Below, one piece after another: positions 10,568 to 12,755 of a stretch of DNA of 47,024 bases (positions within the stretch are counted from its first letter, which is position 1; each line of letters opens with the position of its first letter). A model generated the notes under the pieces. That model ran no database searches, was not told the origin of the DNA, and was given only the letters and a program-made list of their open reading frames with translations. A program made the translations under genes and the position numbers. Where the stretch lies: the sequence record SRR20825010_2269; one strand, 5' to 3'.

Positions 10568-11767
10568 ATGTCTCAAGAAATTGAACACTTCATTCAGCAC
10601 CAAGGTCAAACAAATCCCTTTCCCTATTTAATTGAGATCGATCGCGCAGAAGGAATTTTTCTGTACGATAAAAAAGGTAAATCGTACATGGATATGATTG
10701 CCGGAGTTGCAGTGAATAATGTTGGGCATAATCACCCAAAGGTGATTTCTGCCATTAAACGTCAGGTCGATCGTCATTTACATGTGATGGTGTATGGCGA
10801 GTTTATCCAAGATAGCCAATTGAATTTTGCGAAAAAACTTACCAATCTTCTTCCAGAAACTTTAAATAGTGTCTATCCTGTAAATTCAGGAACGGAGGCG
10901 AATGAAGCTGCTTTAAAACTTGCGAAGCGTGTTACAGGAAGATCCGAAATCGTTTCTTTCAGAGGTTCATACCATGGAAGTACGCATGGATCGATGAGTG
11001 TTTCAGGAAACGAAACTAAGAAAATGGCCTTTCGTCCGTTGCTCCCAGATGTTCGTTTTATTCAATTCAATTCGATTGAACAACTTTCGCAGATCACTGA
11101 AAAAACGGCAGGAGTCATTGTGGAAACAATTCAAGGAGATGCCGGAGTTCGAATTCCATCTCAAGCATTTATCTCCGCATTGAGGGCTCGTTGCACGGAA
11201 GTCGGCGCGCAATTAATTTTTGATGAAATCCAATGTGGAATCGGAAGGACAGGGAAATTATTTGCTTTCGAGCATTTTGGAATCGTCCCTGATATTTTGA
11301 CGCTTGGAAAAGCACTTGGTGGAGGAATGCCGATTGGAGCGCTTGTTTCTTCTACCGAGAAAATGAAGGAATTGAGTTACAATCCAATGCTTGGTCACAT
11401 AACAACTTTTGGCGGTCATCCAGTGGTTTGCGCTGCTGCCAACGCCTGTTTGGAAGTTATGGAAACCGACATTGACTTCGCACTGGTTGAAAAGAACGCT
11501 GCACTTTTAGAATCGATGGTTGGAAGTCACCCCGAAATTAAAGAAGTTCGACGCATAGGAATGATGTTCGCATTCGACATGGAATCTTTCGAACGGGTAG
11601 AAAAGGTCGTTAAGAAATGCCTTGAAAAAGGATTGATCAGTTTTTGGTTTCTTTCTCATCCTTACAGTTTCAGACTTTCTCCTCCACTAACGATTTCCGA
11701 AGAAGAAATGCGACTTGCAGGGAAAATCATCCTAGATTCTATTAACGAAACGTCATCGTTGAGTTGA
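10568..11767 (+). CDS. Class III PLP-dependent aminotransferase (acetylornithine/ornithine aminotransferase-like)
   Basis: NSGTEANE, SYHG, IFDEIQCGIGRTG, LTLGKALGGG, TTFGGHP. Confidence 0.9.
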   Translation: MSQEIEHFIQHQGQTNPFPYLIEIDRAEGIFLYDKKGKSYMDMIAGVAVNNVGHNHPKVISAIKRQVDRHLHVMVYGEFIQDSQLNFAKKLTNLLPETLNSVYPVNSGTEANEAALKLAKRVTGRSEIVSFRGSYHGSTHGSMSVSGNETKKMAFRPLLPDVRFIQFNSIEQLSQITEKTAGVIVETIQGDAGVRIPSQAFISALRARCTEVGAQLIFDEIQCGIGRTGKLFAFEHFGIVPDILTLGKALGGGMPIGALVSSTEKMKELSYNPMLGHITTFGGHPVVCAAANACLEVMETDIDFALVEKNAALLESMVGSHPEIKEVRRIGMMFAFDMESFERVEKVVKKCLEKGLISFWFLSHPYSFRLSPPLTISEEEMRLAGKIILDSINETSSLS

Positions 11768-12265
11768 TTCGTACCCAATTTTTCTTCGAGTATCGGTACT
11801 TTCTGCCTGATCGTTTTGCTGAAGTAAAAATTTGAGTGCATCGTACACGTCATGATAATTTCCTTCTAACGCGAACAGTCTTTTTGCCAATTCATCATAA
11901 GTGAGCGCGAACCTTCGCAGTTCTACAAATGCGCGCATAATTTGAATATTCACAGCAATCGCTTTCTCAGATTTTAGAACTCCGCTCAACATTGCCAATC
12001 CTTGTTCGGTAAATGCCTTTGGAAGGTATCGCCTCCCTCCATGCGTTGAACTTGAGGTTTCAATTTGAAACCTCAAGTTCATTTCTTCCCATTCAGCTTG
12101 AGTTATTTGGAACATAAAATCTTCTGGGAAGCGCTGAATGTTGCGTTTAACGGCCAGGTTCAGCACTTTAGTTTCTACTTCGTAAAGCGCTGCAAGGTCA
12201 AAATCTAGCATCACTTTTTGATCACGAATCATGTGAATTCGCTCTTGAATTGTGGTTAGGTTCAT
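11753..12265 (-). CDS. ORF6N-domain DNA-binding protein
   Basis: IRDQKVMLDFDLAALYEVETKVLNLAVKRNIQRFPEDFMFQ and GGRRYLPKAFTEQGLAMLSGVLKS...IMRAFV...RRKIGY are the ORF6N signature. Confidence 0.92.
   Translation of the reverse strand: MNLTTIQERIHMIRDQKVMLDFDLAALYEVETKVLNLAVKRNIQRFPEDFMFQITQAEWEEMNLRFQIETSSSTHGGRRYLPKAFTEQGLAMLSGVLKSEKAIAVNIQIMRAFVELRRFALTYDELAKRLFALEGNYHDVYDALKFLLQQNDQAESTDTRRKIGYESTQR
12047..12081. repeat. Perfect 35-bp palindrome (17-bp arms, 1-nt centre) inside the ORF6N coding sequence
   Basis: TGAACTTGAGGTTTCAA-T-TTGAAACCTCAAGTTCA read directly from the sequence. Confidence 0.97.
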
Positions 12266-12414
12266 TCTTAAATAGGTTAATTTCTATTTAAGATACGTAA
12301 AAAGATGATTTGATTTAGCGCGGTAGATAAAGAAGTTCGATGACTACATTTTTCTGTTGGGCTTATTTGGATCATTTTCAAAAAACATTCTGATAGTAAA
12401 AACTACCTGCACAA

Positions 12415-12672
12415 TTCCCTGATGATGAAATCGCTATTCGCTTTAAGCACAGAATTCTGAATATTCATTGCTTCCCAAATGGAAATGGAAGGCACAGTAG
12501 GTTAATGGCAGACTTAATTGTGGAGAAAATTTTCGATGGAAAAATCTTCACTTGGTGTCAGTCGAATTCGATTCTATAGAAAGAAGATGATCTCCGTTCG
12601 AAGTACGTAAAAGCACTCAAGAATGCCGACAATGGCGACTTTAATGATCTCTTAAACTTTACACGTTCTTAG
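12415..12672 (+). pseudogene. Decayed Fic-domain gene (mobile mystery protein B-like), 3' part only
   Basis: Frame reads FPDDEIAIRFKHRILNIHCFPNGNGRHSRLMADLIVEKIFDGKIFTWCQSNSIL*KEDDLRSKYVKALKNADNGDFNDLLNFTRS*. Fic motif HxFxNGNGRxxR; in-frame TAG at 12577-12579; upstream stop at 12397 and no 5' half. Confidence 0.85.
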
Positions 12673-12755
12673 TTGGAGGTAACAGTTGATGAAAGGAACC
12701 GATAAAGATGTATTGTTGAAAACCATCCCACTGAGCGTGTAAGAAAGAAAACAGG

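Follow-up and report, generated by a model that had tools for sequence, protein, structure and literature searches.

The window, which is the whole stretch of 47,024 nucleotides that was analysed (sequence record SRR20825010_2269), contains an ORF6N gene located between two class-III aminotransferase genes and adjoining a decayed Fic/DOC gene. A perfect palindrome lies inside the ORF6N gene. The features that concern this work are listed below, and bases of the palindrome are numbered from its centre.

11753..12265, minus strand: ORF6N gene, 170 aa, assigned by the ORF translation and by Pfam, PADLOC and PHROG matches
11792..11968, minus strand: codons of two long C-terminal helices, residues 100-136 and 138-158, from the AlphaFold secondary structure
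12047..12081, no strand: perfect 35-bp palindrome with 17-nt arms, in codons 62-73 of the ORF6N gene
12051..12077, no strand: 27-bp dyad core (centre ±13), the part conserved in the family, from aligned relatives
12143..12172, minus strand: codons of the helix formed by residues 32-41 (TKVLNLAVKR), from the AlphaFold model
12155-12157, minus strand: L37 codon, which covaries with -4 and -5
12164-12166, minus strand: V34 codon, which covaries with -5
12167-12169, minus strand: K33 codon, which covaries with -7
12400-12672, plus strand: decayed Fic/DOC gene, divergent from the ORF6N gene (Pfam Fic, E 2.3e-5)

The class-III aminotransferase gene upstream, on the plus strand, converges with the ORF6N gene, with an overlap of 15 bp between the two 3′ ends (11753-11767). 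The Fic/DOC remnant consists of a 59-aa piece with the HCFPNGNGRHSR motif, ended by a stop, and its continuation lies in another frame.

The product of the ORF6N gene matches the Pfam family ORF6N (PF10543) with 114 bits, against a gathering cut-off of 27.8 (E 3.9e-33); the match covers residues 9-96 of the protein and positions 2-86 of the 86 in the profile. The domain is reported to have been defined by Iyer et al. in 2002. ORF6N is the only Pfam domain found in the protein at E ≤ 0.01, with neither KilA-N nor ParB among the matches; the NCBIfam models gave no match, and the PDB sequence search no real one. In addition, the protein matches the PADLOC candidate single-gene defence family PDC-S05 through the HMM PDLC04869 (E 1.5e-54) and a second HMM, PDLC04856 (E 8.1e-54, residues 4-163), as well as a PHROG labelled anti-repressor.

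The AlphaFold model of the protein, built on 82 sequences and with a mean pLDDT of 84, presents helices at residues 21-27 and 32-41, three short strands, and the two long C-terminal helices, which we infer from the model to be the probable dimerisation part. The peptide encoded by the palindrome, which a preliminary description of this DNA had called the variable core of the protein, belongs instead to a low-confidence loop: residues 62-82 have no secondary structure, and their pLDDT is about 65-67. Foldseek returned nothing for the model at E ≤ 0.001. Fold matches to winged-helix DNA binders were obtained with VIA at Z 5.1-6.4, which is below the level at which the tool is trustworthy; among these are the DdrC N-domain (Z 6.1), Dachshund (Z 5.5) and pSK1 Par (Z 5.1).

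The arms of the palindrome, at 12047-12063 and 12065-12081, are 17 nt long and 100% complementary around a single centre base at 12064. On the gene strand they are read as M62 NLRFQIETSSS73, followed by THGGRRY, and the window letters and the ORF translation bear out the description of a perfect palindrome with 17-bp arms that encodes (M)NLRFQIETSSS ahead of GGRRY. The accompanying claim that such arms are too long for chance in 47 kb also holds: about 6e-6 palindromes of this arm length are expected given the base composition of the window, and the longest arm in each of 30 window shuffles was 8-13 nt. The runner-up among the perfect inverted repeats of the window, at about 2334, has 12-nt arms and a 4-nt loop. 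The 25-nt core, searched with at most three mismatches, was found once in the window and in none of 100 shuffles, and half-sites occur at chance level; the window carries a single copy of the dyad.

A terminator scan flags the palindrome on the plus strand (12047-12091), antisense to the ORF6N gene and in a mid-gene position, with the tail TTTCTTCCCA. On this strand the terminator-like palindrome could stop read-through out of the aminotransferase gene.

Conservation of the dyad among relatives

Relatives were sampled from genome contigs (80 of 598) and from viral contigs (80 of 215). The tblastn matches that covered query residues 40-95 were kept, which gave 175 gene copies, and after removal of five copies with internal stops and merging of duplicates there were 148 distinct proteins. 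At the homologous position, 63 of 92 copies from genome contigs and 40 of 82 from viral contigs have a perfect stem of at least 9 bp, while the best stems elsewhere within the same genes are mostly of 3-6 bp. When the geometry was fixed to 12 pairs (±2 to ±13), all 148 relatives scored at least 9, with 12 pairs in 62 of them, 11 in 52, 10 in 28 and 9 in 6; control windows in the same genes scored 5-9 of 12, with a mode of 7. Another 40 genes also keep the dyad, all of them with at least 9 of the 12 pairs. Among the relatives the arms reach 20 bp and are often perfect.

The arms covary. Across 137 aligned sites, 79.7% of the cells are paired, against 61.8% after shuffling (a value reached in 0 of 500 shuffles) and 27-40% with slid partners. 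The covariation score is 0.457 versus 0.142, changes on both sides were found in 16 of 17 arm pairs, and compensatory cells number 423 against 159 expected. Complementarity is retained as the residues change, which is the result that the preliminary description had proposed to look for by testing the arms of homologues. The motifs that it gave for homologues (LRSQFVTS, LKSQFATS and LRCQIGTS) were each present among the relatives fetched, and its explanation of the residue pairs around the central Q[F/I] as by-products of compensatory base changes in the arms agrees with the codons: TCA..GTG for S..V, TCG..GCG for S..A, TGC..GGC for C..G and, in the window, TTT..GAA for F..E.

The consensus of the half-site, from -13 to the centre, is Y T T G A G R T N N C A A W, and the window half-site has G at -7 and T T at -5/-4. 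The centre of the dyad is AT-rich. In 106 distinct cores from different phyla, T at -6 and C at -3 are each conserved in 97% and A at -2 in 100%.

Three loci present two tandem dyads, 24-39 nt apart, within one coding region: L162 (1507 and 1543), L167 (1507 and 1531) and L022 (994 and 1033). The ORF6N paralogue of L174 is interrupted by an in-frame stop (GE*WE) when aligned by tblastn, yet keeps 12 of the 12 pairs of its dyad.

As for the surroundings of the gene, no common neighbourhood was found in the flanks of the relatives that were scanned. These flanks are heterogeneous and mostly housekeeping; mobile or defence genes, among them integrases, DNA methylases and a type I R-M pair, occur in some. 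The majority of close relatives are solitary genes of the chromosome amid housekeeping genes, at many unrelated places. In five Pedobacter-like genomes (L012, L016, L021, L028 and L077) the ORF6N gene lies between ilvD and the gene of the acetolactate synthase large subunit, all in the same orientation. PF10543 is present in 41 of the 201 genomes of one phylum sample, a tally that includes one unpublished genome on which nothing else here depends, and in a collection of isolate phages there were five records, all unannotated.

Recognition helix and site bases

Variation within the dyad is shared with three residues of the predicted helix 32-41. Expressed as a fraction of base entropy, the shared information is 0.97 between -4 and residue 37, 0.96 between -5 and residue 37, 0.73 between -5 and residue 34, and 0.83 between -7 and residue 33. 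For -4 and -7, the helix residues predict the base better than do the residues encoded by those very bases. The correspondences are as follows:

Q37: A at -4, in 86 of 88
E37: G at -4, in 21 of 21
R37: C at -4, in 19 of 20
K37: C at -4, in 8 of 8
L37: T or G at -4, in 10 of 10 (on both arms T in four and G in two; mixed arms in four, one of them T/A)
K33: G at -7, in 70 of 71

Phylogenetically independent pairs were taken from supported branches of a tree built without the helix and site columns; this tree is based on 126 columns and is weakly resolved. There were ten such pairs for K33 with G at -7 (p 0.004), eight for Q37 with A at -4 (p 0.008), eight for E37 with G at -4 (p 0.008) and six for R/K37 with C at -4 (p 0.03), with no pair in the opposite direction in any of the four cases. 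L37 gave just three independent pairs, which is not significant.

The rule was also applied to an out-of-sample set of 40 genes, assembled from a phylum-wide PF10543 search, the paralogues of four genomes and a distant plasmid subfamily, with sequences already used and a locus from an unpublished genome left out. The base at -4 was the one predicted from residue 37 on both arms in 38 of the 40, and G at -7, predicted from K33, was found in 19 of 19. The prediction failed for L191, whose site is asymmetric, and for L170, where E37 occurs together with A at -4. L170 and L168 are related genes from different genomes that have a common CA-type site, one gene with K34/Q37 and the other with R34/E37. 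No departure from the helix rule is clearer than this pair, which may represent a recent switch.

The window fits the rule, with K33 and G at -7, and with L37 and T T at -5/-4. An asymmetric site, with T/G at -5 and R37, is retained in several lineages. Residues 33, 34 and 37 stand in the relation i, i+1 and i+4, on one face of the predicted helix. Judged from the aligned sequences, the bases of the dyad track these three helix residues in the product of the gene that contains it. The coupling between site and protein had been placed in the peptide encoded by the palindrome; the residues that follow the site are instead 33, 34 and 37, in a helix about 30 codons upstream. The helix codons lie only about 90 nt from the site. 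Recombinational co-transfer of helix codons and site could add to the correlation, although the columns in between carry little information.

A protein-contact account of the S..V-type residue pairs was rejected, since the relation between helix and bases is also found in genes that read the core in another frame.

Replication could also generate symmetry with no function, if template switching copied one arm onto the other and the palindrome perpetuated itself. Quasi-palindrome correction is a known mutational process, and the perfect arms with abrupt ends, together with the scarcity of intermediates among the long stems of relatives, which hold eight internal mismatches, agree with it. Such a process leaves unexplained both the tracking of bases by residues 33, 34 and 37 and the cross-phylum conservation of T-6, C-3 and A-2 (97%, 97% and 100%), and as the whole explanation it is extremely unlikely. 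On the other hand, perfect arms of 17-20 bp exceed the conserved core of 27 bp, a surplus that binding alone leaves unexplained, and template switching may help to keep the arms perfect.

Nature of the element and location of its copies

The preliminary description proposed that selection acts on a DNA or RNA hairpin or cruciform. Selection at the nucleotide level stands, and the RNA hairpin is disfavoured, as the mismatches lack a wobble preference. The 106 distinct cores hold 91 mismatches, of which 44 are of the transversion type, 32 are A:C and 15 are G:T, the rarest class, and one-sided (wobble) states are near zero across the 137 aligned sites. Relatives that seemed to have a 3-nt loop have unchanged geometry and spacing, with merely ±1 unpaired. 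In eight relatives the core is read one frame over and gives ITNCD-type peptides, and eight extra copies, in six loci, fall outside any ORF6N-like coding match. Given the absence of a G:T preference, the fixed spacing, the cores in the other frame and the non-coding copies, the palindrome is, on this comparative evidence, best taken as an element that acts as dyad-symmetric duplex DNA, rather than through RNA or the peptide.

These data bear on the possibility that the palindrome forms an mRNA hairpin for stability or translation, for instance an RNase III site or a target of the protein on its own message. The palindrome is transcribed within the mRNA, and covariation of this kind is shown by structured RNA. 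Against this stand the rarity of G:T (15 of 91) and of one-sided changes, the retention of the core in another frame and in non-coding copies ahead of starts, and the lack of an Rfam family: a scan of 11500-12700 returned just sub-threshold miRNA and snoRNA noise, and the best models overlapping the palindrome, both miRNA, reached 19.6 bits (threshold 83) and 15.9 bits (threshold 70). Moreover, Q with A, R/K opposite G and E opposite C are typical pairs of DNA reading in the major groove, which is what the helix rule resembles. An mRNA hairpin is accordingly a very unlikely explanation indeed.

Inversion of the loop was also considered, as suggested by the complementary loop pairs A/T, AAA/TTT, AAC/GTT and GAT/ATC. 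It was dropped, since the 3-nt loops are the same geometry with ±1 unpaired and a symmetric site has no strand. No evidence was found that the palindrome is a mobility signal or serves inversion or templated diversification, which were among the roles first listed: the locus appears in the contigs of four sequencing runs with no differences, joints or loose ends, and as these copies are contigs, minor variants are not detectable there.

The 13-nt core has 3-6 occurrences in four genomes, against 0-1 for the reversed control. Fifteen core matches in these genomes were inspected, a set that omits two sites on G002:C63; eleven are inside ORF6N genes, one is beside an ORF6N fragment, and the remaining three have arms of only 6 bp. 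A regulon of further sites was thus found neither in the window nor among the sites inspected in the four genomes, and without such a regulon the gene must have some further output.

Two Segatella copri plasmids, L176 (2,955 bp) and L177 (4,140 bp), have rep and ORF6N as their only annotated genes, in a PLSDB gene table that is incomplete. Their dyad is inside the ORF6N gene and nowhere else on the plasmid. These two-gene plasmids hint that, on small replicons, the role may be one of maintenance or control.

Copies of the dyad also occur in non-coding DNA. Upstream of starts, at distances of 62-220 nt, there are four clear copies; one fits the type of the adjacent gene and three (L035, L039 and L065) do not, and a fifth upstream copy (L035b) is degenerate. 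Three others lie 20-85 nt past a stop, and all three match the type of the adjacent gene. The mismatched upstream copies fit cross-regulation by a paralogue, not simple autoregulation.

Tandem arrays of ORF6N paralogues were observed in L071 (four copies), L035 (three), and L002, L003, L027, L044 and L079 (two each). Specificity classes are mixed in L002, L035, L044, L071 and L079, for example E37/CG beside R37/GC or Q37/CA; L003 and L027 present one class throughout.

A further explanation is that a folded single strand or cruciform would serve as a signal for recombination, replication or mobility, the protein reading the stem. The long arms (up to 20 bp), often perfect, the AT-rich centre, and the presence of the gene at many unrelated chromosomal places and on two-gene plasmids would suit such a signal. 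No recombinase or HUH nuclease is regularly near, however, as 150 flank ORFs scanned include two Y1 transposases and two integrases; the spacing is invariant, and the T/G at -5 kept with R37 in several lineages would be a mismatch in a stem. The absence of joints and variants in the contigs of the four runs points the same way, weakly. A folded or cruciform signal is, on balance, very unlikely.

Proposed function and comparison with known systems

We propose that the palindrome is probably the cognate binding site of the product of the gene in which it lies. Of the roles first listed for it, an intragenic operator coupled to the specificity of the protein fits best. The ORF6N protein would bind the dyad as a dimer, each monomer placing helix 32-41 into a major groove. 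In each half-site, residue 33 would read -7, and residues 34 and 37 would read -5 and -4. The site would be accommodated in codons of a flexible loop, whose peptide (here with F66 and E69) would follow the bases that the site needs. The bound dimer would then block RNA polymerase within the gene, and expression would be self-limited. Such a roadblock, if true, makes a one-gene module that is independent of the promoter context in which it lands.

If binding is real, self-limiting expression is a nearly even prospect. An aba-like mark of "self", which would restrain a defence activity on the DNA that carries the gene, is on the same premise possible and rather doubtful, and some other function, for example that of a partition-like or nucleation site, a little more doubtful still.

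Sites for a protein within its own coding sequence are known from other systems. The lambda origin consists of iterons inside gene O, in codons of a flexible linker, that are bound by the O protein; several iterons and an AT-rich region are present, and the origin fires replication. The ORF6N dyad resembles it in lying within the coding sequence of its proposed binder, at a flexible part of the protein. It differs in that ORF6N genes are chromosomal and usually have one site, with one copy in the window and a tandem pair in a minority of relatives.

The purB operator and the second operator of purR, the latter in the repressor's own gene, are palindromes in coding sequence at which a repressor dimer limits transcription. 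The likeness is the palindrome within a reading frame as a proposed dimer roadblock. These are single cases in one species, whereas the ORF6N site is found at one codon position across phyla and changes with the recognition helix.

In partition systems, too, the cis site is found inside the gene of its binder or next to it, as in parS inside parB/spo0J, and pSK1 Par is a single-protein partition factor. The DNA-binding domain of pSK1 Par (PDB 8csh) superposes weakly on residues 18-100 of the model (Z 5.1, rmsd 2.2, 53 aligned), below the trusted range. In contrast to ParB/parS, the window protein has no ParB domain, and chromosomal genomes present several ORF6N paralogues, each with its own site.

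The closest comparison for the "self" mark is BstA and its aba element. The aba element has 63 bp, composed of 29 bp upstream and the first 34 bp of the bstA gene, and needs terminal CCCGCC direct repeats, according to Owen et al. 2021 (PMC8585504). In both systems the protein, of a defence type for BstA and of a candidate one for ORF6N, carries a DNA-binding domain of the phage type at its N terminus, a short element located at the gene of that protein acts as DNA, and each variant has a cognate element; for ORF6N this last likeness is by comparison only, from helix residues to site bases. They differ in that the ORF6N site is a mid-gene dyad (codons 62-73), while aba spans the start codon and has direct repeats, and in that no Pfam KilA-N match was found in the window protein at E ≤ 0.01.

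By its HMM scores the window protein is a member of PDC-S05 and of PF10543, and an in-gene site is mentioned neither in the family match output nor, judged by title and abstract, in the ORF6N papers found. Our literature searches yielded no description of a palindrome inside ORF6N genes, and nothing on KilA-N with a palindrome in coding sequence. In the accessible part of a preprint (bioRxiv 10.1101/2024.09.26.614923), one PDC-S05 representative protected E. coli B and lowered the plating of T7 and T5 about 1000-fold. This phage-protective representative bore a Virulence_RhuM domain, and no ORF6N-only member with phage protection is reported in that part of the preprint.

These comparisons concern a second reading of a product-bound site, chiefly aba-like self-immunity, in which a defence effector would hit foreign DNA and spare DNA with the cognate site, and a site in the coding sequence would keep gene and antidote inseparable. 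The match to PDC-S05 (E 1.5e-54), the effect of the tested representative on T7 and T5 (bioRxiv 10.1101/2024.09.26.614923), the pairing in BstA of a KilA-N-like DNA-binding domain with a cognate element at its own gene (PMC8585504), the many ORF6N specificity classes, mixed among tandem paralogues, and the 215 relatives on viral contigs favour it. However, the tested representative may be a different type of protein, given its Virulence_RhuM domain; single chromosomal genes amid housekeeping genes have no obvious use for the immunity of a replicating element; the promoter-proximal extra copies resemble ordinary operators; and aba is made of terminal direct repeats across a start codon, not of a mid-gene dyad. 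We consider self-immunity unlikely as the main role of the site. The broader proposal, that ORF6N genes are portable one-gene self/non-self modules whose protein would interfere with DNA that lacks the cognate palindrome, and whose 33/34/37 classes would be immunity groups diversifying under conflict, is speculative and equally doubtful.

Across many phyla, protein sequence is being shaped by a DNA site concealed within the coding frame, a clear case of a non-coding constraint that overrides the choice of codons and residues. For annotation, the labels terminator, hairpin RNA and repeat element are probably best avoided for the palindrome. The helix rule, if true at the bench, would explain how tandem paralogues avoid or use cross-talk, and would supply a natural set of orthogonal, re-programmable DNA binders with their sites. 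A very common and poorly understood candidate anti-phage family gains a testable handle, in the form of a defined site and a three-residue specificity rule.
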